Assembly: GCA_036172245.1 (NCBI GenBank)
Contig: JAYWIR010000004.1
Location: forward strand, 6,138,001 to 6,202,000
DNA from: Raillietiella orientalis
Lineage: Eukaryota
Length of the DNA: 64,000 nt
Reading direction: 5' to 3'
Shown here one piece after another: positions 16,056-39,075 of the stretch (position 1 is the first letter of the stretch; every line of letters begins with the position of its first letter). The position numbers and the translations under genes are program-made. Below the pieces are notes generated by a model. The model had not been told where the DNA came from. It did no database searches and saw only the letters and a list, made by a program, of their open reading frames with translations.

Positions 16056-17228
16056 CGGAGGAAGAACAGAGAGCTAAGAGGGAGCAGCCAAGGGAAGCCC
16101 TTCCAGTCAACAAAAGGCTCAACTGGTTTCTGCGGGAGAACCATGGACATCGTCGATTGCATGCCACTTGGACAAAGAACCCAGAAATTTCCCTCGAGCC
16201 GAGAAAGCTCCAAACTGTTCCAAGAGATTTATTGTACTGGAAAAGCCTACTCACAGCTCTTCATTAGTCCTGTTATTGCCTGGTAGAATCCTCTTATGAG
16301 TTTGTGAAACCTGGCTGTTTTGTTTTTGATTTACCAAGCTGATTGTGCATCTCGTGTGGGAAGAAACAAAGGAAGAGAAGGAAAGGTAAAGTGGAAAGTT
16401 TAAGTGATGAAGGCAGAGATGTTTCTTCACTCTGAGAGCTAGGAAAAAGATATGGCTATTTCCTGACTACTTGAAATGGGAAGATGAAGTGGGAGATGAC
16501 AAGCTCATGTAAGAAAGGATCCCTGCGAGCTCATATGAGAAGGGATTTCACAGAGAGTCCCTGATGCGAGGGCAAACGTCCCATTCGCCTGAAACATAAC
16601 TGGAACTCTCTGTTTCTTCACAGAATGCTCCTTTCTTGAAGAAAAAGGTCCGTGAGGGGAAAGTTCTCGCACTCACTCCAATCGTCGTTGCACTTCCAGC
16701 GTGAAGATTTGCAGACACCATCTTGGATCAGCACCATCATGCACCTTCCTCAGAATGAGTCGATCCTGAATCTGGGAACTGTAGAAATTTGAAATTTGGA
16801 TACATTGCATTTCTTGCGCATATCAGAATCTAAGAGGCACAGCGAGCACCAAGGGTTTGCTCCACTTGATGCTTTTTGCGCAGCAGGAGAAAAAACTCTT
16901 CATCTCTGTACAATTGATGCATCCACTACTTTCCAGATCAGGGCTTTTCCCATTTTGGAGCAGCTGCTTTAAGATGCTACGTCATGAAAAGCCTCTCATT
17001 TTTGTCTTACCTTCTGCTTGTTCTCTCCCTATCTGGGCAGACAAGACGCCTTTTTGTCTCTTCTATGCATGAAAATTCGTGCAAAGAAACCAAGAAGACT
17101 CAGGAACTCCAAGGCAGACACCTGATGAAAAATGGATCATCTCACTGAGCTCGTCGGGAATTCCTTTCCGTGTCTGCGTCGACTTAGTGACGCCATTTAG
17201 TTTATCATAACTTCCGTGACTATTACAG

Positions 17229-17965
17229 GATGGAAAATCTCGCTGTTTATGCCTCGGTTACTGCATCGATGCAAAGCAGAGATTGCGAGTGTTTTTCACA
17301 AATTAGAGTACCAGAACAAGGTGAGTTGATGAAAATTAATGCCGCCATCGGGTACCTCGGAGTGGATGGATTCCTCTCTTGTTCTCGACTAGAGGCCCAA
17401 GTTCCTCAGATACCACCTGCATGTGAGACCGGTAGCAGACCGGATGGCTTTGAAGATTCCCCTTTTCGGGATAAACACTACTGCAGTAAGGTTGGCAACA
17501 CTATAAGTCGACCAAATAATGTCGCCTGGAATCCTTGGTGCAAAGCTCATGGTGCAGCTACATTTCTTCCATAAGACTACACGCACTCGTCATCCGACAT
17601 GAACCAACAACAGCGCGAGTATGGACCTGTAGAGGAAAAATTGAAAACACAAGAATATTCGGCCTATGTCGCTGTCTCCCTTCGAAAACCATTCTTTTTT
17701 TTTTTGTCATACCAGAACTCTGTACGAGAGGTTTGACAGTCTCTGACTCCAAAAGATGTGTGGTTGGAACACCATTCTAAAATCGAGAAAATCTTGGACG
17801 ATCCTTTTCAGTTTCAGCTGCCATGCAGCACAGCACATGACACCATATTTTTTGTAGGATGCAAATAAAGAGAACTATTTTGATTTGCATTGGGTCGGTG
17901 GTAAAACACTACAGGAACGTTTTACGCACTACAGTTAGATGAAGATCACTTCTTCTAACTGATTA
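17229..17965 (+). pseudogene. C-type lectin-domain pseudogene (exon candidates 17229-17320, 17393-~17617, 17858-~17965)
   Basis: AG/GT-bounded segments give HYC..W...WCKAHGA and then HWVGG..F..YS*....SN*. The last two stops (TAG, TGA) fall where C-type lectin tryptophans (TGG) are expected. Confidence 0.5.
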
Positions 17966-17989
17966 CGAGATTCTTCGGAAATCAACAAG

Positions 17990-20493
17990 AAGAATGGTTT
18001 TTCCTTGTGCATCCCGTCACGAGGAAGCTCTCCATGAAGAAGATCACGCTGTGAACCCTTTCCCTGTAGCCAGGCTGAAAGGGAAGACACAGGGTGCTTA
18101 CACTCGAGCAGCAGCCATCTTTTCCACGGTGACTTTCAAAACCACAATGGGAAAGATGGCTGTAAAGCCAGAGTCTAAGGCCGGAAATTCCATTCTCAAC
18201 AGAGCAACTTGAACTCAAAGGTCTGTTGTGGATGGTGGAATTCTGGGGAAAGAGTTGCTTCCAAGCAGCTCCTTAATCCACAATACGGGCACACACGGCG
18301 TGGGATACCTCCTACATGTGCCTTTCCATCCCGAGGTAAAAGTGATTCTGACTGGAACATCTTTTTCCCTTATCAACTTGGAATAATGTTCCAGGAAATT
18401 CTGGATCTGCTTCTGCTACCTTCAAGAGGCCAAAGATCTGGGATTATTTTGGGTCCGGACTTTTCCCTCGACGCCACTATGGAATGCTTCTCGCATTAGG
18501 ATCTCTTCCAGACCATCCCTCCCAACTTTTCCAAGCTGCACACTGGCGTGATTCCTGATTCCAGAACTTCAACCCCAGAACTGTCATCTCCGTGGACGTC
18601 ACCAGACCACGGCTCCCTTCCCACTGGAAGAGGAAAACGGTCCTCCAGTGGGAACAGCGAAGGTTTGCAGAGTAAGTGCTCTGGAAAGTCCATGAAGCTA
18701 GAGCCGATGAAAAAATCCAACAGATCAGAAGATGAGGGAGTCTGTGAATAGGCGGCGGGATCGTTCTTGGGATAGCTCTATGATGGGAATGGATCCAGGG
18801 AGCTCAAGGGAGTTAAGATCCATCGGAAGATAGTTTCCTGCTGTAGGAAGGATGGTCCGGTGTACTCGTCCGAGAGGAACACGCTCGCCAAACGGACGAT
18901 GGCAGCGTGTCCCATCCAGAGTCAAGGAGCGCAGCAATGCCTTATGGCACTCTGTCGTCCAAGAAGGCAGTCGGCTGAAAAAAATGGCGTATTCCCTGGG
19001 GATTAATCCTCTCTGGGTTTTCGGACCGATCTCCTGAGAGCCTCTCTTGTTTCTCTGGCATCCGGAGCCTCATCTGCTAATGGTCAACTCTCCGGGCTGC
19101 TTCTGTCCTCTTCGTGCCGAGTTCTTAGAGGAGGTTTGCGCAGACAGCTGCAGCTGCTCTCGCTTTGAGACTGTCCACTTTGTCCTGCCGCATCCCAAGG
19201 GTGCTGAGGAAAGCTCCGTTTCTTCTGTGGGAGAACGAAGCAGCTTCCGTTTCCATCGGCTGCCGATCAGCAGACAGGACCAACCAGGGGATGGAGGCAG
19301 AGGGTGTACTCTCTCTGGCCTTTTCTCCTTGTGGTTCATACTGCGTTGGGGTTCCCAAGAAAACCGCAGAACCCTCACGAACTCACGGAGGGAAGTGTCC
19401 CTTCAGCGGAATTGAATGCCTGTAAGACTTCCTCTGTAAGACATCCTATTATCTCAACGAGAAAATGCAGCGGAGGAATATGCCGAGGTTCGGAGGAGGA
19501 GTGTCCCAATCCATCTGCATGGGAACGGACTTCGGGCAACACGCAGTGGTTCCTTCAAACCTGCTCTTCTGTCTTCTGTCAAAGACAGCCGTTGATGCCA
19601 GAAATTTCTGGAAGCCAGGGGGTTAAAAACGGGTTCGCGCAGTAGACGGCCACAGCGTTTGAGAGAAGCGAGGAGGGATCAGGTCAAGGGACGAAAGGAG
19701 GGGATGCGGGAATCATCAGACGGGAAGAGGTGGCAGAAGAGAGGAAAAACAGTGAGCACAGTGGGCTGGTCAGTGTTGGTCAGAAGGGGATGTGGAGCCG
19801 GCTCGGGGGAAGGGGACCCGAGTGTGAGAAGCAGGACCACCATAATCCCACACGGCCTTCAACTGAGTCGTCCTTGTCCTTTTCCATCGAAACCACCCAA
19901 AATTACAGAAGCGTGGGACCCCGTTGTCCTCATCCAGGACAAGGTCAGTTTGAAAGAGATAGCACGTGGCAGTTTGTGCGCGAGCCATTTTTTGAAATGG
20001 AAGCGAAGTGTTGGTCTCCCTCAACAGCTGAAGACGTCGAGAGCTGCATCGAGGTGTGCCCTTTCGCAGCAACTATCTCTGCAGCATTGGAATCTCATCT
20101 CCTCGCCAACCCACGTGCTTTCCGTCCTTCCTTCCGTGCTTCAGTTCTCCCTTGTCCGGGAGTCGCCAGCGCTATCTCGCTACCGCTATCCCAACTTGGT
20201 TTCTTCTTCGCTATTCGTCCACTAGAGGGCTCTGAGGTGCACGGGGGATCTCACCTACACCCTAAGCAAGCCTCCTCAGAGGAGCCTTCCTCCTCCTCCT
20301 CCTCCAGAACCGAGTGCAGTTTTCGTGGAATAGTGCTGGGTCTTAGGCAGGCACGAGAAAGAAGCAAGGCCAGTTAGGACCACTCGAACAGGAACAGATC
20401 AGTCGAGAGCGACGAGGCCCCACGGACGAGACCAGCATTCCGCGACTTGTGTGCGCTTCTCGGGGCGACTGCAAGATTTCGTCACTCCTATGC
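17990..20493 (-). mobile_element. Host LINE (family C), 3' half: decayed RT subdomains and C-terminal zinc finger; probably contains an unrelated insert around 19650-20250
   Basis: NAGLVRGASS near 20430 resembles QxGFxxGRS, domain 5/6-like remnants lie near 19550-19650, and VCPYCG..H lies near 18290. It continues the reading frame of 28617-30300 across the family-A TSD. Confidence 0.5.
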
Positions 20494-20509
20494 ATGCAAG
20501 AGAGGGAGA

Positions 20510-23309
20510 CGGAGGAAACTCTGCATGTTACCGAGGACCTGAAAAAATTAGCGGAAGATGTCCAACATGGAAAAATTGAAGAAAAGAAAGAGCAGCAACG
20601 ATTGCTTCGATGTTTTTGCGAACTTCAAGACGATATTAACAGAACGGTGGAGGTAACCCATCGTGAGAAGCTGGAGAACAAGCTTCTTAGAGTAAAGGCA
20701 GAATACTGCACAAGAGAGAATCTGGAGAAGCTTCCAGTCAGTACCAATGAGAAGTACGAACAGCGGACAGAGACCACCGACCTCACTGGCACAGAAAGTG
20801 ATGCGGGAAGTGACTGCGACTGTCGGGAGGAAGAAGGTTTCTCGCGGCAGATAAAGACCAGAAGAATAAAAAAAATAATAAAACCACACAATTTAAGGCC
20901 TCGTTCCTATCAACTAGCCGGAGAATTAACATTACTTCATGGAATATCAATGGACTATCAGATCAAGGAAAAAGGAAGAGGACTGTGCGAAACATTGTCA
21001 AACAAGACATCATATGTCTGCAAGAAACCCACCAGATGGGACAACAAATCACCCTTGAGCTAGAACGATTATTGAATGGGCAAATATCTGTTAGTGAAGG
21101 ACAGAAAGGAGTAGCGATTTTCATTAAAAACAAACTCGCCCACACCATTTTCGAAACCTTCTGCCCAATTTCGGGGCGAATTATCGGAGTAAGGCTAGCC
21201 TGGTCCTCTAACGTTCATCTGTTTTTGGTGAACGTATACGGACCACATAAACTAAAACATCAATGTGCGGAAACCTTGCACGAAACACTCCGCGAACGAG
21301 CCACAACAAAGGATATTATCATTATCATGGGAGACTTGAATATCTTGAAGGAAAACACTTACCCCCAGGATACTAGAGGAAGAAGGGCGTATCAGCGGTT
21401 GTCCGATGAGTTCGGATCTCAGTGGCGAACAGCTAGCCACAAGTCGATCGGCCATATTTTGCATAGTTCGGAAATTGAAAACCGTATACAAGGATTTCGA
21501 GACATGCAAACTTTGCTGTCCGATCATCCACTGGTGCGGTTCTCTCTTCGAACTGAAAATCCCCGGCGAAGCAAAGAGACTAGGGCGGCACTGATATGCA
21601 TGCCTACCTGGTTCGAAACGCTTCCCTGTCACCAGGATGTCATCGAGGCAATTCTGCGAGACGCACCTATCCGCAGAGTCGCCGACTGGGACAGTCTAAA
21701 GCATAGAGTCCATTTATTTTGCAACATGCAATTTGGAGATAAAAGGTTGAGGCAAGAAGCGTACCGTGAATAATGCCAAATATCTAGGAGTCCACATCGG
21801 CGACGAGTCGGCGTCGAAACTACTGTGGACACAAATTCTAGAAAAAACTGCGAACGAAACAGCAAAATATAACAGAGTGGACTTTAGTATGAAGAAGAGG
21901 GCGAACCTTTGGAACGGAGTACTCCTTCCCAAGATACTCTTTGGAGCGGCCTTTGCCAGGACGAATCAGGACACCATAAGGGAATTTGAAAAGCTGCAAC
22001 GCAAGACCCTATGGATAATATATCGACCAAGAGTGAGATTAAAACCCCTGTGTCGTCCTAAGGAGGAGGGCGGTTCCGGGATGAAGTTGCTTGCACATTC
22101 CGTAGAAATCATGGATACGCGACACATCATGGACATCGCTGCCCACTGGAATGACTGGCCCTATGCAGCTCATAGGGCCTAGTCGATGTTACTAAACAAC
22201 TCGAAAGGCCTGATGACTGCATTGCTAGGCCGATAGGGGAGTGGATCAGCATAGACCCCACCTGGAAGAGGAAACAACAGCTGGTGCAAAAACACCAACT
22301 GAAGATCGTTCCTAGAAGCAAGGAACTCTGGAAAGTGGAATCCATCCTGGTAATTCCTTGGATGCTTCAGGTGCCCTCGGACACGAGAAACTGGATATAG
22401 CAGAGGCCCAGAGTCACCATACAACGAATCCAAGAATGGAGAAAAGGAGGATACCTACATCAAAGTCGTATACTTCGGTATATAGAGATGGTGTTGGGAA
22501 AATTCACCCATAGGACACGCGAAGTGTGGAAAAACCACAGGGACTTTGCCTGGTCCAGGGTGAACAAGCAGAACCTCCGAAATCTGATTAAAGAGGAAGA
22601 CCAAGATAACAGTGCCCTCCAAGAAGCTGCCCATCGCTACGGGAGCGACAGGATCAAGCTGTTAGCAATCGGCACGACTCTCTGGAGGAGTGACCTACCG
22701 CCAGACATCCAGGACAACCTCCTGATGTTCTCATGGAGGAATCCTGAGCGAGTCCAGAGTGAAGTACTACACGGGAAGACGTGAAGACGAAGACTGCATG
22801 GCATGTGGAGACATTGATACGAGACTACATGTCTTAACCTGTCCCACATTAATCCGCGACTGGCTCATCCTAAAAAGGGTCATAGGACGTACAACCAGTT
22901 CAGTAATGGAAATACTTGCCGGGATGTTCCAGGGAGATGGAAATGTCCCTAACTACAACCCCTTGGTAAGGACGACCATTGCTCTTTTTATCACCGCCAT
23001 ACTGGTGCGGTGGTGGAAAATGAAAAACGCTAGGATAGCTCCTTCTCCGATGGAAATCCTGAAAGGGCTAATATTAAAGAAGATTGGCATCAGGAACTGT
23101 GGATGAGTACAGGCCTGGACGTACCGCTATATCCTGAAGAGGATTAAAGACGACGCCCAGGCAATGACGTCAACCAACGTTCTATAAAAAGTAGAACCGG
23201 ATTGAACAGTGATACCCATGGTGTAAGTTGTAAATGAATGAGCCATTGTAGCGTGATTGAAAAAAGGGGATGAATAAACTCACCCCACCCCTCATGGGAC
23301 TAGGGGAAA
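20510..23309 (+). mobile_element. LINE family A copy 1 (L1/Tx1-like): 5'-truncated ORF1, APE endonuclease, RT core deleted, thumb, zinc finger and 3'UTR; perfect 16-bp TSD
   Basis: Motifs ITSWNING, DIICLQETH, KGVAIF, NVYGP, MGDLN, LSDH, then KYLGVHIG, LCRPKEEGGSG and CMACGDIDTRLHVLTC. AATAAA at 23273. atgcaagagagggaga occurs at both 20494-20509 and 23310-23325. Confidence 0.92.
20919..21773 (+). CDS. Apurinic-endonuclease-like (APE) domain of LINE family A copy 1; frame open from 20814
   Basis: Uninterrupted ORF with SWNING, LQETH, GVAI, VYGP, GDLN and SDH motifs. Confidence 0.85.
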   Translation, partial: RRINITSWNINGLSDQGKRKRTVRNIVKQDIICLQETHQMGQQITLELERLLNGQISVSEGQKGVAIFIKNKLAHTIFETFCPISGRIIGVRLAWSSNVHLFLVNVYGPHKLKHQCAETLHETLRERATTKDIIIIMGDLNILKENTYPQDTRGRRAYQRLSDEFGSQWRTASHKSIGHILHSSEIENRIQGFRDMQTLLSDHPLVRFSLRTENPRRSKETRAALICMPTWFETLPCHQDVIEAILRDAPIRRVADWDSLKHRVHLFCNMQFGDKRLRQEAYRE

Positions 23310-23975
23310 ATGCAAGAGAGGGAGAATTAGAGAACTTCAAGACAAACATCGCTGCGCGGAAGCCATTCAAGCTCTCCTGCGCAGTAAGGCCTCGGCGAAG
23401 GACATCGTAATTATCGTGGGCGAACTGAACATGCCGAACATCAACACTTAGTACAAAGTCGTCAGGGGAACAACGGCCTGCCGTCAGCTGTCCGACGAAT
23501 TTGGGCTGCAATGGCAATGGCCAACAGCAATAAGATAGAGCACGTCCTGCACAGTCAAGACTCCGCAATTCGGGTGCAGGGAATCCGGGACGTTCCATCT
23601 GTGCTCTCGGACCACCTCTTGCTTCGATCCATTCTGCGAACGGAGAATCCCCGGAGAAAGGCAGGAGCGAGGGCTGAGTTAGTATGCATGCCCTCCCGGT
23701 TCGAAACGCATCCCTCTCACCAGGAACTAATCGAAGCAATTCTGCGGAACACTACCATATGCAGAGTTGCGGACTGGCCGAAGCGAACGATCCATTTGTT
23801 CAGCAACTTGCAATATGGCGACAGGAAGATGAGAAAGGAAGCATATCTCTATGGACTACTGGATGGTTCAGTCTGAAAACACTGGCAACAGTATGAGAAA
23901 AGGTACGTTTTCAAAAGAATCAAAGGGGAAGTTGGGGCACTGGGAAAGAGAAACATCGCAACCAATGTTTTCTCC

Positions 23976-24671
23976 ATGGGACACAACGATGAAGTCAGGT
24001 ACACATCGGGAGGAATCGCGGAGGTATTTCACCATCATTATGCCTCGCATTTCCGACGAAGAAATCTGTGCCCGACAGAACAAACAAACATCTTAAGATA
24101 CTTGCACACGCAAATAAAAAGGGAGCATCAGGGAAAAATGGATCAAGATATCTCCATCGAGGAAGTAAAGAACGCGTTTGAAGGACTCCGCAAAGATGTG
24201 GCAGCAAGCCCTGATAGTGTTCCCATCACGCACTATCAGCGTTACCTGCATACCTATCTGCGCCTGTTCCATGAATTTACGCTCGTAATCAAGGAAGAAG
24301 GAAGGCTCCCGTTATCATTCCATGAGGGACGGATGAAACTGCTGCCAAAGGGAGGAGACCTATTGGAAGTAACCCAATGGAGGCCCATCACCATCCTTAA
24401 CACAGACGCAAAGTGCCTCGCCAAGATCTGGGCCAACCGTTTAAGCATCGCGATGTCATTGGTAGTGTCTCCTACGCAGACATGCTTGTCTGCAAATGTG
24501 AAGTGTGCCCTGGCCACCATCGGGTATTGCCGATATATTAGTGAAAACCTAGTACTAAGGCTCACTGATATGGAGAAGGCGTTTGATAAGGTGGATCACA
24601 AGATGCTCCTAAAGATCTTAAGGAAATTGGATTTCCAAGTTTCTTCTTGCATTATGTGGAGTGGACCCTAG
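23976..24671 (+). pseudogene. Reverse transcriptase N-terminal subdomains (0-3) of family A copy 2
   Basis: AASPDSVP, LPLSFHEG, WRPITILNTDAKCLAKIWANRL, DMEKAFDKVDH; frameshifts and stops follow. Confidence 0.88.
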
Positions 24672-25562
24672 CAAAACAACAAGTTAAGATTCGGATCAGA
24701 TGGGTTGGAGACGACAGCAATACGGATGGAGTGAGGTGTACGCCGTGTTATACATGGAGGCAGTATCATCAATCGTGGATTGCGGTAGCCGTCTCTAAGG
24801 AATCAGGATAGACAACCAACAACTGACACACCTGGCTTATGCATATGATCTCTCTTTCTTCCTTAAGGACGAACGAGACTAACAAGCATTCCTAGGTGTG
24901 ATCAAGCAAATGGAAAGAAGATTGGGACTCAAAATCAATGCCCGAAAGAGTCACCTGCTGCAAATGGGGATCATGGACCTCTCTGCTTTGCAAGAGGCTG
25001 GATTCTGAGCAGCGGAATCTGTTAAATGCCTGGGAATCCATCTTGGCGACAAGACTGCGTCCCCTTGACTATAAAAAAAATCCTGGGCAAGATCAGTGAT
25101 GAAGCCACTAAGTACACCCGTATCGACTTTAACATGAAGCGGAAGGCCACCTTGTGGAACGGCGTCCTGATTCCCAAGGTACTCTACGGGGCGATCTTCT
25201 GCCGAATAGATAAGGATACAAAGGTGGAATTTGAGTCTCTACAGAGGAAGATCCTATGACGGGAATTTAAACCAAGGATAAGGTTGAAATTGTTGTGCCT
25301 CCCTCGTGAGCATGGTGGAACCGGGATGAAGCTGCTCGAACATTCTGTGGAGTCCATGGATGCGCGGCAACTCCTGAATCTCACCAGAAACTGGGAAAGC
25401 TGGCCTTATATAGCGCACAGGGCGTACTCGAGATTTCTGAACTCGAGGAGCCTGATGTTCGCACTCATTTGGGCCACTGGAAAATGGGTGCAGATCGATC
25501 TCACCTGGCGACGTAAACAGGCACTGGTGAGAACTCACCATTTTAAAATCGTGGCTAGAAGT

Positions 25563-27550
25563 TTTTTACCTAGTCATGCCGGGACGTTTATTTTCATAAA
25601 CCAGCTGGAAACAGTTGTTTCCAGCCAACGACTACAAGAAAACCAACAACGGAGATACGCCACTGGCACGCAGGCCAGGAAAACGAAAAGTCCGGAACGG
25701 GTGGGGGAGGAGGGGACTTCCAACAAAAAAGAACAGTCTAAATGGGAGGAAAGGGCCAGAGATCTTTGGTGAGTCACCGGAATAGACCAAGAGTGAAAGC
25801 AATAAAAGCACTACGGAGCGAATGGGAAGTGGGGCGCGAAAACAAAAATGAAATTAAATGGGAATGGAGGTGGATCACCAGGATCGTCGTTCCAAACCAT
25901 AGGTAATCCGGACATGGATGCCGGTGAGCTTCTCCGTTGCGTTTTCGGTCAAGTGTCGCCACCCAGCAGCCGCATTGATGAAGTCGGCTGCCTTCCCGGT
26001 GACCCAGCATCGCTGACCAGTGTTCTCCAGCACGTCTCCGACCGTGACGATGGCGCGGATGCAACCAACTGTCGAAATCATCGCAGCCACAGAAAGTCCT
26101 TGCGGTTGGAAGAACCGTCGCAGCACTCCTCGAGCGGTGTCCCCCGGTGACAGGAGTGCTGCTGCCAACCTCCGCCAGAGGTCCTGGAGGGCAACGCAGT
26201 CCAAAACAACGTGCGGGAACGACTTCGTCGCCCCTCACCGGGCACAGTAGAGAGAAGCCACCCCACCAGAAACTCGGTGCCGCCGCTCATTGTAGCGCAA
26301 GCCCCAGTGCAAGAAGAGGAAAACCTCTTGCTTCTATGCAAGGGGAAACACCAAACCGTCCAAACAGCAGGAAGGGACTATCAGTTCCTCGGGGGCAACA
26401 CCAAGAGCTTTTCCCCACCGAAGGAGTCCCTTTGCCGTAGCACGAGGAGTGGCAGCATCCACCAGCTCGCTCGTGTCCCATTCGCCGAGGAGTTTTGTTC
26501 TTCCTACAATGGTGCAGGAGAACTCCCACCTCGCCAATTGGCTACTGTCTTCTCTAGCTTCGAAGACAGACAGTGCTTCGGCGAGGGGCGTGGCGGCCAG
26601 GGAGGAAAACTTCACCTCGTCCTGCATCACGTCTTGGAGTGACCAAGGTTGGAATTGACGCAGTAGGCAAAGATCGTCGGGGCCCATTCCCAGGAATGCA
26701 GCCCAAGAATCAACAGATTCCTGCCGACAAGCACTGTAGTTCATTGGGCGGCATGAAATCCACGAATCGGCTTCCAACAGTGAGGCGAGTGCCCTCAAAG
26801 GATAGCCAAACCCCTGTTTTCTGTGGCGCATGCCCGGCACCAAGGAAAGAAGTCCTTCACTGCCGGCATACCTCCGTAGGAGGATGCGCGCGGGCGCACA
26901 GTGGAGGGAAGTCCAAAGCTCGGCACAAAGTGCCAGCATCCGGAACTGCACTTGCAGTCCGATCCGCTCCATCGTCAGGATACCAAGACCGGCATCCCGA
27001 CGTGGAGCCATCAAGTCTTTCAGGTGGATCCTGGATCGCGCCGGACCCCAGAGAGCGTTACTTAGCAGGCGTTTAGCCCGCTCTTTGGCCGCGTAGGGGG
27101 TCCAAGACAAAAAACAGGGGTCAGAGGAGGGGGGCCACGAAGGTGTTCCAAATAGCCGCTCGGCAGCGGCGAGGTCGCCTAGCGGAACGCCCAGGTACTT
27201 GAAGTACCCTGCCGTGGGGATCCCCAGGCGGATACAGTCGGACTGCCCCTCTTACGACGCTTCCACAGGAACGACCACGCTCTTCTTCCTGTTCACGCTC
27301 ACGCCCGCTCCCCGACGAATCAGGTCGAAGAAATCTTCGACACTGGACGCCGGGGTGAACATGGGGAGCAGAAGAAGCAGGTCATCTGCATAGGCAGCCA
27401 CGGCAAGCGTTCCCGGGCAAGAGCTGGACAGGTACTCCAGCGACAACCTGTACGCCCTCAGCACCAACTCAAAGATGCTGAAAAGCAACGGGCTTAAACT
27501 GTTGCCCTGCCTGATGCCCCTGCGCACGGGAATACCGTACACGTGGCAGC
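25563..27550 (-). mobile_element. LINE family B, 5'-truncated copy (RT subdomains 4-7, C-terminal zinc finger, 3'UTR) nested in family A copy 2
   Basis: Motifs GIRQGNSLSPLLF, AAYADDL, GVSVNRKKS, FKYLGVPL and PRRDAGLG. AATAAA plus a short A tail at 25563-25595. 13-bp TSD cgtg(g/c)ctagaagt at 25550-25562 and 27551-27563; removing the insert restores HFKIV(A/P)RSREIW, matching HQLKIVPRSKELW in copy 1. Confidence 0.92.
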
Positions 27551-28616
27551 CGTGCCTAGAAGTAGAGAAATCTGGGATGAGCAACTGACTATGGTGATAC
27601 CTCACTCTATCCCGATCCCAAGGGAGACTGTGAACTGGTTACACCACAGGCCACGCTTGATCATTAGACGTTGTGAGCAGTTCGCCACTAGTGCCAACCG
27701 GCACCAAGTGAGACTGCATCGACTGATCATGACCTTGCGAGGTTCTTTCAACCATGGAACCCGGGAGCTCTTTGGCAACAGCTGCCACATCAGGCGTGGC
27801 TGCTGATAAACAAAGCAAACATCAAGATGGAAGTCGCAAAACAGCAGCAAGATATCGATGCCCTCGATGCAGCCTCAAGTTGCTACGGTCCTCGCACGCC
27901 AATGTGCTGGCCGTAGGGTCTGCACTAATAAGGAGTGACCTTCCCCTGGACACTCAGGACGACTCCTGTTGTTTTACAACGGAGGCATACTGAGTGGCTC
28001 CAGACCGCGGCACTGGACCGGGGACATACAAGATGGACTCTGCAAGGCGTGCGGTGATTACGAAAACCAGGTACACGTACTCACCTGCCCCACACTGCGA
28101 CCTGATTGGCACGCGGTGAAGGCGGTGATCTGCCTCCAGAGGAAAACGGGAAAAAAAATACTGTGGGGTTTATTCCAGGGGACAGGAAGTGTTCCCCAGT
28201 ATAACCCGATGGTGATGACCACGCTAGCCTTCTTTCTCACAGTCATTGTGATTACGAGAGCCAAGATGTACATCCTGCAACGACAAGTTTCGGCATGGGA
28301 CATACTCAAAGGCCTTGTCATGAAAGAAATAGGAATGAGGAATAGTGGTAGGATACCAGCCTGGACCTACCGTTACATCATATTGAAGATGAACGAATAC
28401 ATACAGGAACAAAGAACGATTTCATCGCCCCCTTCTCTACCCTGAAATTTCAAAAGATAGTGTGTTGAATGTGATGTGTTAGAAAAAACAGTGAATCTGT
28501 TCAGTAACGGACTGTAAAATGCTTACCTAAATGTATGTTGATTGTTCTGTGAGCTTGTTTTATGATAAATTCACCCCATTGCTTGTAGGTTAGGGAACAA
28601 TTGCAAGAGAGAGAGA

Positions 28617-30300
28617 CAAGTAGACTGTAATTTGCTCCCTGGATTGGCTCATCCTTATTCCCTTTCGGAGGATACTCCTGCTTGCTGGTAGAACACACTC
28701 TCCAGAGATCAGGTAACCGGAAACTTCGAAGAGGTGAACATAAGGGTGATTAGGTACTCAGGGATGCATCGGGGAACTGGAATGTCCCTGTAATGCGCTT
28801 CCAGCACTGAGACAGCTACTGGAGCATTCCGAAATCACGCGAGTAAGTTTTCTCCATCCCTCAGCGAGAGAATTTCTTAGGGGTCTTCCCTCTGAGTCAT
28901 GGTGGCGTTCCTCCTTTCGAGAAAGACCTCAAGTGCACCGAAAAGATGGCCATGTGCTGGCAACAAAAAGGAAGCACGGACACTTAAGTAGGGAAGCTGG
29001 GAACTCGAGGCTTCCAACGGCGGCAGGGAGAGCTGTTTTCCAGGAGTCAGAACGAGTGAGCGGACGAAAATTTGCTGTGATCATTGGGGGACCTCTTTTC
29101 TCGGTCGTCACGAGGCACCTTGGCCAAAGGACAGCAGGTCGCTTCCGTCCCCTGAGTGCAAGCTCTCGTCTCGAAGGCGGCCAGAGCCCTCTTCCCTTTT
29201 GATTTCCTCCTCACGTCACCATCCTCCCTCAACACAAGTTGTCTGGACTGGTGCAGCAAACTGCGACTGGTAGCCTGGCTGCGGCAGAATGAAGCAGGAA
29301 GACTGCTGACTCGTATGCGGAAGGATGAAGAAGGTTGGGAATCGAAAAGAAGACAGTGCTCGCAAAGATGTGTCAAAGAGGAACAGGAAGATTCGGAGCA
29401 CTTCATTCGGAGGAAGCTTGTGCCTTTCCCTCTATCCTGTAGCGGACACAGCCTCGTGTACTTCCAGAAGGAAGGCGCGCGTCCCTGGTCTGCGACGCCC
29501 TGGGGCATCTTTTAGGGATCCTAAGGATAAATGGAAGACCGGAGACGCTGAATGAGATGATGTCTACTGCCGTTGAGGAATCTGCTGCCTCTGAGACTCA
29601 CTCTCTCTTCATAAGAAACAAATTTTATCCAGCGCAGAGCTGGAAGCCTCCGTTGGCACGGAAACCGTCCCTTCCAAGCGGCAGACGGCGCAAGACTTTC
29701 GAACTCACAAACAGTGTCCTTGCGATTTCCCAGGGGGCAGTGGGTTTTTCAGATGCCATTCGATCCTGCTCGTGGTTCCGTAGAGTGGAGGATCTCCTGC
29801 TCTCCTGAGTGATCAGGAACCGAGTGCTACACCACGAGTGTGATGGAAATTCTCTGGGATCCTTCTGTTTACGCTACTTTCCGTCCAGCTTTTTTCCTTT
29901 AGTTCTCCAAGTGCTGAAGAACCGTTCGCCTCCTTAGGGAAGGAAGGGAAAGAGTTCAAAAAGCGCTTTGGCGCTGTCCCCCCCCGAGGGTGCGTGGGAC
30001 TCTATAAGTCAGGGGGCAACCAAAGAAGGATCACCCTGTGAATCCAGGAAGGCCCTGGAGGAAGGAATCCGTTACACTTGGTAGGGAACCCCGGATGGAA
30101 CCCCTCCCTTCTTCTCTCCAGAGGAATTTCCAGTTTGAAATGATCACTCCTCGTATCTTCTCCTAAGGAAACCCGGAACAGATCCGCTCTTGGAAGTTCT
30201 TCTCCAGAGGATCTGCTCTTAGTTTCCTCCTCTGAAGGGAACCCCGAAGGGACACTACAAGTTCTCTGAAGGGCTCTCCCTTCGGAGAAAAGGGAGCAGA
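28617..30300 (-). mobile_element. Host LINE (family C), 5' half: decayed APE, tower region and RT subdomains 0-1
   Basis: In order on the minus strand: KKGGVP (GVAI-like), SHAP (YAP-like), SALDKI (SRLD-like), SFWKYT (WKLN-like), RLPDLWR, PPKGNKD..NYSLLVSLSC. Confidence 0.6.
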
Positions 30301-30629
30301 GCTTGTGACACTTTGCAGAGGCAGCCCCCGAGAAGGGTATCAGCCAGCTCTATGGAATGTGATGGAGGGTACCTCTCCGAGGGGGGACACGGCTCCATTT
30401 TCTCAACCAAAAGGAAAGTCTGAAGGGAGCCGGCTGCTCGATTCCTGAAAGGACCCCGGAGGACTGACATCCAATCCCGGAATCCCGGCCAGTCGACGGG
30501 AGAGCAGACGGTTTCCCGCTAGTGCGGCGCCCAAAGCCCGCGGACCGACCAGCGCCAACCTGCAAGGGGCGCATGACGTGCCCATTTGCGGCATCGATCC
30601 TACGTGCATCCTACATGCGCCCCCCTGTT

Positions 30630-32100
30630 GAACCTGGTCACGCCAGGAATTTATTTGTTAAAAACAAAACTTGGGAGTCAGTGGCAGGATGCATGATCCT
30701 GCCACGTTGCTTACAACTACGAAAAGGAACCTGCCGGGAACTGACACGCAGACCAGCGGAGTTCGCCTCGGCAGCACAAGGGAAGGAGAGACAAACAAAA
30801 AGAAAAACAAAAAAAATCCAAAAATTGGAGGGGGGAGGTTCGGGAAGGGATCACTGTGTGTTGGAGGGTGTTCCCTGCATTCTTGTAAGGATGCCGGCAA
30901 GTTCCTGTTTCGAGGCTCCCATCTTGACGCTGTCATCATGTGGAGAACAGCAAAACAGATGGCGTCCCTGACGTCGTGGCCTTTTTTAGCGTTGTTCCAT
31001 GAGCCACGGTCTCGCCACGTAGGCAGAAAAGTGCTACTGGGGATGCGACCGGCGTGAGGGCGTCGTGCAGGAACAGGCGCTTCAAAACGCCTCTGGGTCC
31101 AGGAGTTCCCTCGAGGATCCGTAGGGACTTGGAGAAGAGCCCCTGCATGGGGGGGAGGGCAACACATTCCATGAGCAGGTGCGGAAGGGACTCTCTCTCG
31201 TCGCATTTGCCGCATTTTGGGCTTACACTTCCCCGTATCCAATGGTGTCGGTGGGTGTTGCACGGGAGACCCCAGTACAACAGCAGGGTCGCCGACTCCT
31301 GCCACTCTAGTGAGAGAGTGGAACTGTTCCAACATGCTGGGGGACACTGTACCTCCAGAGGAATTTTCTGTAGCCTTCCTCAGCTCAGCAGTCCGTTTGG
31401 TGGGGCATTCAGGGTCTTGGCGTCCGCCAGCTCCCGAGTTGTTCCACTCACTCAGATATTTTTTCCTGATCTCTATCACTCAGATCACTTCCGACCTCGC
31501 TGGCAGTTGTCGGTCCACTGCTCCTCTAAAGGAGGGTAGCACTGACGCGAGGGGGATGAACAAGATCCACAGCAGATTCCTGGTGGTTTCCAGGATCTCC
31601 TTCAGCGGCTGGAGAGCGCATCTGCTGCTCCGTAGGCAGATGTACTCTGCCTCGCCCGTGCCGTGAAGTGCCTGACTCTCATCCCTGTACAGTGTCTATG
31701 ATTCTGCCACATCCTGGAAGACGCTGGGGGTCTTGCAATTCGCAAGCAAGCCTCTAGCCTCCAATCGCTCTCGGGTTGTCCCACTTCCTCATACTCAGAT
31801 GCCCGCATTGGAGCGACTTCCGGCGCGGTGCCGAGTGTCTCAGGTTCGAATCTCCCGATGCATTGATATGGGTGGTGATATATGTAGGTAACCATGGATT
31901 GGGATCGAAGGTGGGAGGCTTCTGCAGGCTGAGAGGAGTGATTGAATAGATCTTTCTAAGTTTGACGGTGGTCGATCCTTTGCCGTGTGATTCTTGGAAG
32001 CTCGGTCCGAGTTGGCTTCGGGATACCAAGGGAATTCTAGATGCAGGACGTTTGCTTTTCTGTTTTTGTTGAATTTACTGGTTGTTTATGACGAAATAAC
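30630..32100 (-). mobile_element. LINE family B, 5'-truncated decayed copy
   Basis: SPKCGKCDERESLPHLLMEC zinc finger; 3' end aataaattcctggcgtgaccaggtt; RT domain 6/7-like remnants near 32030-32080. Confidence 0.75.
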
Positions 32101-35100
32101 TGCTCATGGGGTAGCAGGGGAGTGGGGGTGGAATAGGAAGGATGAAGGGCTTGAGCCCCATGCGTGCGGGCACGTGATGACGGAGGGCGGTGTCTCGATA
32201 TCAGCATGATGGACGTGATGGATGGGTGTGATGGGGGGATTTTCGTGCACTGTAGGTTTTCTTGGCTGTTGTAAGTCAGGAGTGCCAGAACAGGGGTGCA
32301 CGCACATCAGAGAGGCGGTGAGGTAGCGGAAGAGAGCATTCTCGAAGGATCCTCCTCACACGCGGAAGGTACCTCCGTTTGGGTCGGGCTTTTCTGATGC
32401 TTCCTCTGGTGTACAGCCTTCTCCTACCCTCTCCCTGACGGGATTTCCGCGGAGGAGAAAATGGTAGGTTTAGCGGGTCTTTCCACTCGGAGCAGCTCTT
32501 TGGAGGATCCCACCGAGAGAGAGGGAGGGGAGGGAGGGAAGAAGAGTCACGAAAAGAGAGGCAGCCCTGAGAAAGCGAGTGCACACCTATTCTGAAGTGA
32601 CCAATCCTGTAGGAGACGGCCTCTCTCGTGCCCTTCTTCCCAGGTACTTATTGACCTGTCTCTCCCGGAAAGGAAGGACGCAGGAAGGAGAATTTTCTGA
32701 TCCGCTGAACCTCGTGGCGCCCTTCTGGAGTGCTCTGCTGCTATCCAGCGAGAGAACTGCAGCTCCGGGAGGTCCGCATCGCCTGGTGCACGTGGGATGA
32801 GGCACGCGCAGGTAAAGGCGTACGCTTCCGGTCCCTCCGAGGAAGGGGAACCCACTTAGGAACATCGTGGAGCGCATCTTCTTCCAGGGGACCGCATGAT
32901 CGCCCCTGTGGGTCTGCAGGAGCCCTGGAAGGCGTCAAGAAAACTTCCCGACCCGAGGCACTTAGCTGCCGCCTTCCCCATGGTCCGTCCTGAACGGAAA
33001 GAGACCTCAGTATCCCACCAAGGGTGTCGAATCCAGGGAACGTGGGAAGCCTCTTAGCATCAGGACCTCAGCCCTCCGAAGAACTCAGTGAAAGGTCCTG
33101 GAAGCCCCCCTCCGGCCCACGGCTCGCAGAACAGCATTCAGGGATGCGCTCTGAACGCTGCGTTGCAGACCTTTGCTGTCGATGCCTCCTTTTGACAGAC
33201 GGGGAAAGGGAGGAAGAGGAAGGGGGTCTCACGAGTGCACCTCTGATGGGTGGGAGCTCCGCCGTTTCACCTGTCCGACGGCCCAGTAGCCAGGATCGAA
33301 AGAGATGCCCGAAGGCGTGGCTTCCCCTATCGACCGGTCAACCCGGAGCAGCTTCTACGGATGGGAGGGAGGACCGGGAGAGATTGCCGCCGCTATCGGC
33401 TTCAATGCTTCCGGATGACGGGAAAGCAGTGGCAGGGAACGTCACCCGCCGCTCGCAGGCCCCTTCCGCGGACCGGAGGAGGAGAGGCGCAGCAGCAACC
33501 GCTTCCGTGCGGAGCGATTGTCGCAGCATCTTTAGGGTCAGGAATTCGGCGAACAGCAGAGCCGTCCGGGAAGGGGCGATCCCTAAGCGGCGGGGCAGAG
33601 TGCCTTTTCCGGGCGGGTATACTGGAAGAGCAGCTTGATCACTAATCCGGGGAAGATGGGATGGTGGTTAAGAAACCCTCGTAAGGAGACTGCAGTCCCG
33701 AGTGGAGACGAGAGTGAAGATAGCGGAGAGTCCCGGTTACTGGCTGCATGTCATACGTAAAACACAAGCACGGGTGAACCTTCGCGGGTCCAGCATGCCT
33801 ATAGCAATGCAACACATCTCAAGGAGCGTTTCGTGAAGGGGCGTGCGAGTGGGCGGGTCTGAGACCTCTCCAGGTGCAGAGTAGTTTCTCCGTGGTTGCC
33901 GGCAGAATTCCTTGCTACGACCGGAGTCCTTCGGAGAAGATTGGCTGTCCTCCTTGTTCCACTCATGGACGCCACAGCGTTTCGTTTCTCGAATCTTCTT
34001 CCAATGGAGAGCATGCTCGTCGTATCCAGACGCGCGGAGCCACCCTCGCGCCCCTCGGTGACGCATCGGGCAAGTGGCTCCATCTGCTAACCCGAAACGA
34101 AATCTCTCGTGGCGTTCTCCTCTTTCTGCTTTTTTTCGCTTTGATTTGAGAAAACCGAAATGGCGCTGTTTATTGCCTCACGATCATCGGAACGTCATCA
34201 GCATGTTGATGCTGTTTAAAATAATGATTGGGGATCGTGTAGTGACTCCAAAATCAAGCCCTTTGATGAAAGTCAAGAGCAGCTGCAAACCCGGTGTTCT
34301 TTCCGCATAGGAATTGCAGGGGATTGCTGGTCTTCCGAGCATTCTTCGATAGATAAATCAAAAGCGCCACTATGGTGTCATTTTTCAGGAGCTGGGAAGC
34401 AAATTTTGCCTCTTGAAGACCCGATCAATTCTTTTACAATTGTACAGGATGTGCCATTCACGCTGGCTAGAGAGACTGCGAAAACTTCGCCCACCTTCGC
34501 AACATCCAAAGCTGGAGTCTGTTTTGGGATCTGTTGTTTTTTACTTTTTTCTTTGAGGAAGGCGTGAGGGGGATTTTCGTCAACTGCTTAAAAACCGTGG
34601 CTATTCGGTCTTCTATAAATCCTAGACAGCACTCCAGAAAGCGCGCTTTTCCTGCTCCATTCCTGTGCAGCCAAAGTTCGTGTTTCCTGATTGCTCTTCG
34701 ATTCGTTCCGAATCTCACCAGCGGCCGCAGGAAGGGCTGTCTGCTCCTTGGATCCGCCGTGCAATGTGATTCTTACTTTTTCCTACACACGCACAGAAAG
34801 ACAGTGCAGGCAGAGACCCGGATTTCCCAGAAGAGCTGCGCGCAAGGAATCCTGCTGCCTTTCTCGCTTCTCGAGGTACCTGTGCCGCTCTTCCCCCTTG
34901 CTAGAGCTCCGTCCTCGAGATGCAAATATCCCGGCTGAAAATGGGCGGATGGCTCATGCTGCGTTTTTTTCACCGTTCATCCTGATGACGTCATTACCCT
35001 GGCCGCGCACAGCCTCGAGGATTGCATTTGGGTTGCGTGAGCTAAACCCTCGGAAAACGAGGATGGTAAATCATGGGGACAGTAATATTCCCAAATGCCC

Positions 35101-36419: not shown

Positions 36420-36760
36420 TAGGCTTCCCCTTGCGACCGAACTTAATCCTTGAGAAGGGTGATCGCATGATAACACTGGATTTCTCCAAGGAATCAGGAT
36501 CGACTGGGGACCGTGCTGGCCAAGGCTGTTCGCATGGAAATCCAGAATCTCACTCGAGTATTTGTCACTACCACCAAGATCTGCGCCGACGGCGGCTCCA
36601 GGCGAGTTCGCGCCCGAACCTTTCCGCTTTCCTTCGGAACATGTCCGGAAGGCAAGAACGGCTCTATCCCGGTGGTTGGGCGCAGGCTAGACGCTTGAGC
36701 TCCATCTATCTTCAGGGCCGGTTGCTTCAGCAGGTGATTCGTTGCTGACACTCCTTGATC
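36420..36760 (-). rRNA. 28S (LSU) rRNA pseudogene fragment, copy 2
   Basis: Antisense 28S words ggatcgactgg, gctgttcgcatggaa, gtatttgtcactaccaccaagatctgc and ttcagggccggttgcttcagcaggtga; paralogous to 37650-37930. Confidence 0.8.
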
Positions 36761-36849: not shown

Positions 36850-38391
36850 CTCCGGAAACTTCCATTGATCCTGAAAAGGACTGCTGGAATCTCCAGACAA
36901 CCTGTAATTGGAGTAAACGTTTCTCCGGGACTTAAGATCGACTGAACTTTTCTCAGAGACAGTTGTTTCTCACCGGGTGCGCCGGGGAGTTTATTTCTAA
37001 ACTATTCAGGAACAGAGTTCCCGGACAAAGGACACAGAAGAAACGAAGGGGGGGGATCACCGACACGCAGGTCGGTAAACCAAAATTCCGGAAAGGGAGG
37101 GAGGGGACCACAAATACACATATAAAAAATAGAAATAAAGATATGGAGAGGGGAGGGGACAGGGGTCTTTGGTTTGGCCGTTCCTTTCCTTCAGAACCGG
37201 CTATGCATGCCGGTGATCTCGCTCCTAACGTCCTCTGGAAGATAAGTCTACTCGGCAGCCGACGCCATGTTCACGCCGGTTATTCCGGTGGCCTGATGGC
37301 GAATCGCCAGCTTCTCCAGCTCTCGGTGGGCCTTGTCGATGGCGCGGGTGCAACAGACCGTTGCGATGACAGCACCTAAGAACAGGCTGCCTGGCGTGAA
37401 GAAGCTGCGCATCAAGTCCCTCGCGGCGTCCCCCTGGTGCAGGAGAGCTAAGGCCAGTCTCCGCCACAGTCCTAGGAGGGCACCGCAGTCCAAGAGCAGG
37501 TGCGGGAGCGTTTCCACGTCCCCGCACCGTTTACAGTTCGGGGAGACAACTCCCCCGGAAACACGGTTCGTCCGCTGGTTGGAGTGAAAACCCCAATGCA
37601 CCAGCATGATGACGTCCTGTTTCCAGCTCAAAGGAAACACAGAAGAGACAGTTGTCATGGAGCCCTCTTTCCCCTCAGATCCCCCATATCTCGCTGAAGT
37701 ATTAGCTATTCCACCATCAAGATCTGCGCTGACAGAGGCTCCAAGCCAGCAAGCGCCCCACCCCTTCCGCACGAACCTTCGCGACCCACCTACTCGCTGG
37801 AATCCGAGGAACTTGCCAGCCTTCGGCGGTGGTGAGCCCGAAGGCAGGAACGGTTCTGTCCCGGTGGTTGGGCAGAGACTCGGCGCATCCTCAGAACTGG
37901 TTGCTTCGTCAGGTGAGTAGTCTCTGCTTACAATGCTTGGCGGATTTCGACTTCCATGGCCACTGTCCGGCTGTCCATAGCAACCAACACCTTTCGTGAG
38001 ATCTGATGAGCGTCGCATCGGGCGTCATAACCCAACGTTTGGTTTATCTCACAGTTCTGCTTACCCAAAGGAGCCCTTAAGGCGCTCATGGATTCGAAAG
38101 TCCGTGCTTCGGCTTTTGAGCAAGCCGCACTTATTACCCATTTCAAGTTTGAGAATAGGTCGAGGTCATTTCGACCCCAAGGTCTCGAATCGTTCGCTTT
38201 ACTGGATAAGACTCCGTTCTTTTTCCACTAGAGCACAAGCTATACCGAGGGAAACTTCGGGGGAAACCAGCAGTTACCAGATGGTTCGATTCGTCTTTCT
38301 CCTCAAAGTCGAGTTTTTGCTACCAATCTGCACGTTCGGATCGCTGAGGACCTTCACCACTAGAGTTTTCTCCCCTAGCTTCGTCCTGCCC
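36850..38391 (-). rRNA. 28S (LSU) rRNA pseudogene fragment, copy 1 (about 750 nt at 37644-38391, resuming at 36850-36966 beyond the LINE)
   Basis: Long antisense 28S matches: gcggatttcgacttccatggccac, caaccaacacctt, acccatttcaagtttgagaatagg, gagggaaacttcgg..gaaaccagc, gatggttcgatt, gcttcgtcctgccc. After the LINE the minus strand reads gttcagtcgatcttaag, the next 28S segment. Many substitutions, so not a functional rDNA unit. Confidence 0.9.
36967..37643 (-). mobile_element. LINE family B short 5'-truncated copy inserted in a 28S pseudogene; perfect 12-bp TSD
   Basis: SPNCKRCGDVETLPHLLLDC; 3' end aataaactccccggcgcacccggtgagaa; agagacagttgt at 36955-36966 and 37644-37655. Confidence 0.9.
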
Positions 38392-39075
38392 GTCCGAGGG
38401 TGGGAGACACGTCCTGCACAGGCAGGAGAAGAAAGGTAGAGAAACTCGAAGTGACCCTCTATCTAGGCGAGGAAGGTAAGCAGTGCAAGGCGCGTGCTTT
38501 CATCGTCGGTTCACTAGAAACCTGGAATCCAGAAAACGAAGAGGAGCCGTACGATCTTGGCCACGAGCAGCGATCGGATGCTTCACTTGACGGCTCTCCT
38601 TCTGCGTTGGCGCGACGGTCGGAGTTCAGATGAGGAACAGGGACTTTCGAAAAATGGAAGCTTTCGTATGGGAGGAGGAGCATGGAATGAAAATGTGGAA
38701 TTAAAGGAAAAACGTCGACTCGGAGAAGGGAAAGTCCATCCCTTCCTATCGGCCAAACTCTTTCAAGGAAAGATGAGTTTCGTAAGGTGAACCTCATCCT
38801 AAACATCCTTCAGGAAGGAGCAAGCTGCTCACTGATGTTCAGCGCTTCAAGATCGTGCCCTGCTGAGAGTGAGCTGACTGTCACTTCCCTCATGCTTGGA
38901 CAAACCCTCAGAACAGAACGAAGCTAGAAACTAAGCTGGATCTCTGAGCCCGCAAGCTGCCCCTGGAGACCTTGGATATTGCCACTAAAGAGGGAAATGT
39001 GACTTCGCAGTTGCTAGGAGACTCGAAATGAATTGTTTTAAATAATCTCACTTGCAATCCCATCTTTGCTTCCAT
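38386..39075 (+). mobile_element. RLE-type non-LTR retrotransposon 3' fragment with 3'UTR
   Basis: CPSEGG..GKQCKARAFIVGSLETWNPENEE is homologous to 46147-46512; the 3'UTR resembles 45905-46100. Confidence 0.75.

Follow-up and report, generated by a model that had tools for sequence, protein, structure and literature searches.

Two related long interspersed nuclear elements (LINEs) lie end to end at one short sequence in a 64,000-nt stretch of the Raillietiella orientalis genome (NCBI GenBank assembly GCA_036172245.1, contig JAYWIR010000004.1, positions 6,138,001 to 6,202,000 of the forward strand). How did they come to share this site, and what is the sequence that they occupy? Hereafter this whole stretch is referred to as the window, and coordinates are counted from its first letter. 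A first-pass annotation of the window had taken the elements for two copies of one family, here called A, that inserts into the reverse transcriptase (RT) gene of another LINE. The analysis described below points to two lineages of L1-like LINEs that probably share a preference for one 15-bp site, and it gives no support to an RT gene as the target.

Two LINE relics lie between three copies of a 15-mer

The locus consists of the following features.

20495..20509, plus strand: T1, first copy of the target or target-site duplication (TSD), TGCAAGAGAGGGAGA; the host sequence before it ends in ATGCA
20510..23310, plus strand: A1, a LINE relic (Pfam, our own LINE profile, alignment to A2)
23273..23310, plus strand: 3′ end of A1, with AATAAA at 23273-23278, then 28 nt, then AAAA at 23307-23310 adjoining T2
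23311..23325, plus strand: T2, second copy of the 15-mer, identical to T1 (pattern search and sequence reading)
23326..25561, plus strand: left part of A2, 5′-truncated within the apurinic-type endonuclease (APE) domain (Pfam RVT_1; own-profile matches at 23997-24743, 24748-25056 and 25065-25436)
25562..27555, minus strand: N, a nested 5′-truncated LINE relic of an unrelated family (Pfam RVT_1; own-profile match at 27177-27533, 5.9e-07)
27563..28601, plus strand: right part of A2, with C-terminal region, CCHC-like knuckle and 3′ untranslated region (UTR) (sequence reading and alignment)
28602..28616, plus strand: T3, third copy of the 15-mer, TGCAAGAGAGAGAGA, with one G-to-A difference; host sequence then follows

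In the window, exact matches to the 15-mer TGCAAGAGAGRGAGA are found at three places only, 20495-20509, 23311-23325 and 28602-28616, compared to 0.00 occurrences expected from 100 dinucleotide-preserving shuffles. When two mismatches were allowed, the same three sites only were recovered (shuffle mean 0.68), and with three mismatches the extra matches in the window were GA-rich noise. T1 and T2 are identical (15/15), while T3 differs from them by the G-to-A change (14/15). An additional A stands directly before T1 and T2 and is absent before T3. Every occurrence sits at an element boundary, which results in the arrangement T-A1-T-A2-T, where T is the 15-mer. The layout of alternating targets and copies described in the first-pass annotation is real and well above chance. 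The presence of two related plus-strand LINE relics between the 15-mers was likewise confirmed, by Pfam domains and by nucleotide and amino acid alignment. The two relics are tandem copies separated solely by the regenerated 15-mer, as is characteristic of target-specific LINEs, and the 15-mer forms the 3′ flank of both A copies of the window (2/2, at one locus).

A1 consists, in this order, of about 400 nt preceding the APE domain, the APE domain itself, a deletion of the RT core, the C-terminal part of the RT, a CCHC-like knuckle and a 3′ UTR, and is interrupted by several stops and frame changes. A 319-amino acid open reading frame (ORF) at 20814-21773 matches Pfam Exo_endo_phos (3.8e-15). 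Searched against a representative protein library, this APE ORF produced 358 matches at E<=0.001, the closest of which is 39% identical in the N-terminal half of the APE; no close relative was present. Names were obtained for 3/20 of the library proteins looked up, none informative on the clade, and a search for homologues of near lengths gave nothing at E<=0.001. The LINE profile used throughout was built from 15 long LINE ORF2 proteins taken from the library matches. It aligns with A1 at 20919-21359 (profile positions 3-150) and 21748-22176 (positions 754-902). According to the comparison with A2, the deletion lies between about 21764 and 21832 and took away some 1.2 kb of the RT core. The 5′ part of A1, 20510-20900 on the plus strand, is a charged ORF fragment. 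It belongs to an ORF at 20347-21063 whose frame differs from that of the APE ORF, has no Pfam match, and is possibly the end of an ORF1.

As a whole, A2 spans 23326-28601 and is split by the minus-strand element N. Its start corresponds to about residue 142 of the A1 APE ORF, some 730 nt inside A1, which bears out the different 5′ truncation points noted in the first-pass annotation. The ORF region 23877-24671 matches Pfam RVT_1 (3.8e-08). The RT covers own-profile positions 399-904, with the RT motif WRPITILN near 24378 and C-terminal RT pieces also present; several stops and frame changes interrupt the left part of the element. Among solved structures the A2 RT is closest to human L1 ORF2p (6.8e-16), and the match to R2 is far weaker (2.8e-05). 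This similarity would fit a place of A2 on the L1/Tx1 side of the tree, and no more than that. A homologue search with the A2 RT ORF among longer lengths yielded nothing at E<=0.001, and in the ESM Atlas only generic eukaryotic RVT_1 clusters were found. Between them, A1 and A2 encode the APE-like endonuclease and the reverse transcriptase expected of a target-specific APE-type LINE.

The nested element N matches Pfam RVT_1 with an E-value of 1.4e-06 and a score of 28.7 bits, slightly below the gathering score of 29.6 bits. Its tail is A6 (a T run at 25562-25567 on the plus strand), preceded by AATAAA at 25592-25587. The element is flanked by a CTAGAAG duplication at 25555-25561 and 27556-27562. 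If the duplication is extended to 13 nt, 11/13 bases match and the right end of N becomes 27549. The nick would have occurred after CTAGAAG, unlike the A-type site. With its A6 tail and a TSD of 7-13 bp, N bears an ordinary signature and behaves as an ordinary L1-type insertion.

A1 and A2 represent independent insertions

A1 and A2 are 67-70% identical in nucleotide sequence over three high-scoring segment pairs and 48-57% identical in amino acid sequence, and their 5′ ends differ. Codons were compared in four segments, each 67-142 codons long; about 53 A1 codons belong to both the second and the third. The proportion of synonymous differences (pS) was 0.63-0.82 and that of nonsynonymous differences (pN) 0.23-0.32. 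The ratio of nonsynonymous to synonymous divergence (dN/dS) was 0.13, 0.13 and 0.23, the fourth segment being saturated. The combination of near-saturated synonymous sites with low dN/dS shows that A1 and A2 diverged as functioning elements under selection before they were inserted. The codon pattern thus indicates two related lineages and not copies of one family, and the single family A of the first-pass annotation has to be replaced by two distinct lineages.

The same pattern bears on the origin of the tandem. Were the two elements the product of neutral decay after duplication, with 30% divergence, two 15-mers would stay identical with a chance of 0.7^15, or about 0.005. The dN/dS values together with the near-identical 15-mers exclude an in-situ tandem duplication. 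Since the 15-mers differ at one position in one of three copies, while A1 and A2 are synonymously saturated, the elements appear to have been inserted independently at the same nucleotide. The first-pass annotation had proposed this; the contrast between element divergence and 15-mer identity makes the case stronger than was claimed.

Alternatively, a composite A1-T-A2 might have formed at another T site and arrived here as one unit. Transcription might have read through past the A1 poly(A) signal, or the RT might have switched templates within a single event of target-primed reverse transcription (TPRT), passing from A2 RNA to an A1 read-through RNA. Template switching by L1-type RTs is established. 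The A1 poly(A) site could be weak, and an A1 transcript that read through at another T site would contain precisely this internal 15-mer. Such a route still needs at least two insertions beside the same 15-mer; it would change the history of the locus and leave the inference of target preference in place. We consider a single arrival distinctly unlikely.

A third A-like copy left of T1, to which a weak alignment and a long plus-strand ORF had pointed, was rejected: no colinear tblastn signal was obtained there (best E 0.13). A metagenome scan for the A 3′-end pattern returned 53 loci, none of them (0/53) similar to A1 or A2 at the protein or DNA level and none with the 15-mer core; these are chance matches.

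The 15-mer lies outside the expected transcripts

The 15-mer adjoins both 3′ ends. The A2 3′ end carries GATAAA at 28564-28569, followed by 26 nt and then by AACAAT at 28596-28601 adjoining T3. GATAAA is a used variant of the polyadenylation hexamer. In both A1 and A2, then, a poly(A) signal is followed after 26-28 nt by a short A-rich run that abuts the 15-mer, which places the 15-mer outside the expected transcript. The simplest reading is that the 15-mer is flank, a 15-bp TSD that would have been regenerated at each event.

LINEs related to N provide a comparison. Of five N-like copies searched in the window, three yielded 3′ ends with a poly(A) signal (25592, 30655 and 36995). These ends have the same architecture as the A ends but flanks unrelated to the 15-mer, which is therefore no common tail of the LINEs in this region. 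Five folds of A and N-like tails gave no significant conserved 3′ hairpin (z-scores from -1.74 to +1.22).

It could be argued that the 15-mer is the conserved 3′ tail of the elements themselves, which insert into earlier tails, T1 being a tail-only copy or a microhomology. The first-pass annotation had named the element's own tail as a possible refutation of its proposal. The 15-mer is conserved between A1 and A2 at 14/15 positions, far above the preceding 40 nt, as a tail would be. Moreover, 15 is a multiple of three, so an open frame at the joint of the flanks cannot distinguish one retained 15-mer from none. This explanation has to accommodate a poly(A) signal that precedes the A-rich run by 26-28 nt and the end of the 15-mer by 46-47 nt. 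Because nothing A-like lies upstream of T1, a third long copy with T1 as its tail is ruled out. The identity of the three 15-mers, on the other hand, is directly explained if a single original site was duplicated. We give the tail explanation little chance, and the possible refutation probably does not apply. Sequence reading also confirmed that the codons of the A2 motif WRPITILN do not resemble the 15-mer, as had been stated earlier.

A probable preference for one site shared by two lineages

From the layout, the domains, the divergence pattern and the positions of the 3′ ends, all of which are observed directly, we infer the nick positions, the sequential order of events and the source of specificity. 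Two lineages of a polyadenylated, APE-encoding, L1-like LINE would have been inserted sequentially by TPRT, in the same orientation and at the same 15-bp site. The first nick would fall on the minus strand, after 5′-TCTCYCTCTCTTGCA and before TGCAT, that is, after ...CTCTTGCA within an ATGCAT palindrome; at T1, ATGCAT spans this position. The second nick would occur on the plus strand, 15 bp away, after ...GRGAGA. Each insertion would duplicate the 15-mer and regenerate an intact target, leading to T-A1-T-A2-T. Decay would have followed, with the RT-core deletion in A1, the nested LINE in A2 and stops in both. The same cut positions in two synonymously saturated lineages argue that the target preference is carried by the element, and its most likely seat would be the endonuclease, conserved within the group. 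That two target-preferring L1-like LINE lineages were inserted repeatedly at one 15-bp site is, in our judgement, probable.

Several observations weigh against this conclusion. It is drawn from one locus with only two 3′ junctions. G and A dominate the 15-mer, and the window contains more GA-rich 11-mers than expected (22 compared to 6.45 at one mismatch); the elements could prefer a loose purine/pyrimidine tract instead of a strict site. A poly(A) tail cannot base-pair with the priming end ...TTGCA-3′, an unusual situation in L1-like priming. Finally, the target shows no sign of multicopy status in the window, unlike classic safe-harbour targets.

The composition of the site raises the question of a microsatellite-type preference, as in Kibi and Koshi, where the A lineages would favour short (GA)n/(TC)n-like tracts and one such tract was reused here. 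An imperfect GA run accounts for 11/15 bases of the 15-mer, and the over-representation of GA-rich 11-mers fits as well. The accessible part of PMC4494074 describes Tx1-clade families with specificity for (TC)n, (TTC)n, (TTCC)n and (TTTC)n. However, the two events have both nick positions in common, even at the TGCA end, which is not repetitive. At the site, Tandem Repeats Finder detected no array, and the junctions do not lie within one. The GA runs at 7955-7971 and 32516-32528 contain no A copy, a weak point, for most targets are empty anyway. A microsatellite preference appears unlikely, and a preference for the 15-bp site itself is retained.

The host sequence and the proposed RT target

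The sequence on either side of the locus is as follows.

17000..20494, no strand: left host flank, anonymous (no protein family, RNA family, repeat or homologue match)
28617..30625, no strand: right host flank, anonymous; it stops on the right where a further minus-strand N-like LINE relic has its 3′ end (AATAAA at 30655)

According to the first-pass annotation, the 15-mer represents the V-S-L-S-C codons of an NYRP(I/V)SL motif, which belongs to the RT of a different LINE on the minus strand, and family A inserts there. The resemblance behind this proposal is seen when the elements are removed. PKGNKD, then NY, S-L and DEIL follow each other in one minus-strand frame across the modelled joint, and one library protein, P0049, has an exact PKGNKD. 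We searched the flanks for any further trace of an RT. No RVT_1 or other relevant Pfam family was found in the three minus frames of both flanks at E<=1 or in their plus frames at E<=0.1. A tblastn search with the 15 long LINE ORF2 proteins gave 0 matches in the flanks and recovered only A1, A2 and N. The LINE profile produced no RT-region match at the modelled empty site or elsewhere in the flanks, while as positive controls the A2 RT scored 1.2e-37 and the N RT 1.6e-09. With a mini-profile of RT motifs 1 and 2, the true site in A2 reached 46 bits, and the best domains at the joint ranked 386/1609 and 150/1640.

When 15 RT motif-1/2 segments were aligned to the joint by the Smith-Waterman method, the mean best score was nominally raised, at 28.3, compared to 24.8 +/- 1.5 for 400 random segments, 10/400 of which scored as high. 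This test is circular, since the hypothesis arose from that same resemblance, and the raised mean is not independent evidence. The alignments were scattered over frames and positions: 3/15 fell in the claimed frame at PKGNKD, and 1/15 reached NY..SL.

The rejoining of a minus-strand frame held only in part. The frame across the modelled empty site is open for 99 codons, while the peptide path quoted in the first-pass annotation needs a frameshift, with NAGLVRG in a frame other than that of MHRSDEIL. As many as 105 ORFs of at least 70 amino acids overlap 18000-32000, which makes an open frame of 99 codons unremarkable. Downstream RT motifs and an upstream APE are also missing. The view that the host sequence is an RT gene is not supported by these comparisons, and we see very little chance that an RT codon block served as the target. 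Likewise, no evidence was found for the antisense inactivation of a competitor or for the use of its gene as a safe harbour. There is an even slighter chance of a strictly site-specific L1-like clade, made up of the A lineages, with a conserved 15-bp target that belongs to the decayed coding sequence of a different retroelement, possibly to its RT motif 1. If true, this would be a case of one LINE homing into a competitor's gene, a target class outside the lists in the accessible parts of PMC4494074 and PMC4640811.

Other kinds of target fared no better. An RNA gene was rejected, the flanks containing no Rfam family at E<=1 and no tRNA. Neither rDNA nor telomeric sequence was present at the insertion site. 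The flanks have no second copy elsewhere in the window, and comparison of the two flanks for terminal inverted or direct repeats gave only chance matches of 10-11 nt. The longest flank ORF, 243 amino acids on the plus strand left of T1, has no homologue at E<=0.001. Within the window, then, the target is not visibly multicopy, whether as RNA gene, microsatellite or transposon.

At the outer end of the left flank, the C-terminal CCHC region of the LINE profile aligns very weakly with 16871-17020 on the minus strand (E 0.84, -4.3 bits), with AATAAA at 16233; the end of one more decayed LINE may lie here. Between this match and T1, neither an RT nor an APE was detectable.

Other features of the window

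Five N-like LINE relics are present, all on the minus strand: 25562-27555 (N itself), 30626-31605, 37331-37650, 43929-44430 and 49680-50195. They share the C-terminal CCHC region and the same orientation, lie about 5-6.6 kb apart and are about 67-70% identical in nucleotide sequence. The three N-like 3′ ends at 25592, 30655 and 36995 have in common AATAAA, a short GC-rich inverted repeat and an A-rich end; their flanks differ from each other.

A eukaryotic 28S (large subunit) rRNA fragment lies at 37727-38398 on the minus strand, with a second partial copy at about 36540-36700. The fragments correspond to model positions 831-1444 of Rfam RF02543 (219.8 and 37.7 bits). The first is located directly upstream, on the minus strand, of the 5′-truncated 3′ part of an N-like LINE (about 37650-36965), and the shorter copy of the same 28S stretch follows this LINE (direct repeats D2 and D3). 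The arrangement could have arisen by insertion of a LINE into a pseudogene derived from rDNA, or it could be a chimeric retrocopy of LINE and 28S sequence. In Rfam, SCARNA7 matches 55272-55423 on the minus strand below threshold (25.4 bits compared to a gathering score of 65, E 0.046), probably by chance.

Relation to known target-specific LINEs

The target-specific LINEs of the APE type fall into the Tx1 and R1 clades, and one target can maintain several lineages (PMC4640811, as far as accessible). Within the Tx1 clade, the accessible part of PMC4494074 lists Tx1 itself, which inserts into the piggyBac element Tx1D, Keno (U2), Kibi ((TC)n) and Koshi ((TTC)n). In crocodilians it lists Tx1-Mar (Mariner-N4_AMi), Tx1-9_AMi (Harbinger) and families specific for (TTCC)n/(TTTC)n, and Tx1-8_Crp/Tx1-4_AMi target specific groups of long terminal repeat retrotransposons. 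The Tx1-mobilised short interspersed nuclear element (SINE) SINEU-3 forms tandem copies 'sandwiching a TSD' of 16 bp by sequential insertion (same source). The earlier statement that Tx1-clade LINEs stack at regenerated targets agrees with this account, which extends to their SINEs.

The locus described here resembles these systems in the combination of APE and RT, a precise common 3′ junction, a fixed TSD of about 15-16 bp, tandem copies around a TSD formed by sequential insertion, and related families with a common target. It is unlike the Tx1-clade systems of PMC4494074, as described in its accessible part, in that the target is not visibly a transposon, RNA gene or microsatellite, and in that one locus stands against hundreds in print. 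The likeness is functional, and no clade is assigned.

Site-specific APE LINEs of the R1 clade (rDNA), those of telomeres and others are named as a group in the accessible part of PMC4640811. The A lineages differ from the R1-clade, rDNA and telomere systems in that the A2 RT is closest to human L1 ORF2p and not to R2, a comparison that included no R1 reference, and in that their site contains neither rDNA nor telomeric sequence. In R1-type elements the APE-type endonuclease is presumed to be the source of nicking specificity, the TSD is fixed, and several lineages may occupy one site. The A lineages are like them in having an APE-type endonuclease, a fixed TSD and multiple lineages at one site.

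With ordinary L1-type insertions the A elements share the polyadenylation signal, the short A-rich tail, 5′ truncation and a TSD of typical length. Unlike such insertions at A/T-rich nicks, two lineages here have identical nicks, and the site that they share is not rich in T. Elements without specificity would be very unlikely to hit one and the same nucleotide position again by chance.

What made the original claim attractive, a LINE homing into the RT gene of another LINE, has no support at this locus. No title or abstract describing a LINE that targets a LINE RT was found, in a survey that was not designed to exclude one and that did not extend to full texts. The targeting of other transposons, retrotransposons included, is already published, and an RT target would be a new target, not a new principle. 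If the preference for the 15-bp site is confirmed genome-wide, it would add one more target to those of site-specific APE-type LINEs, one common to two deeply diverged lineages. Such elements serve as models for the gain of sequence specificity by an apurinic-type endonuclease and as scaffolds for targeted insertion.

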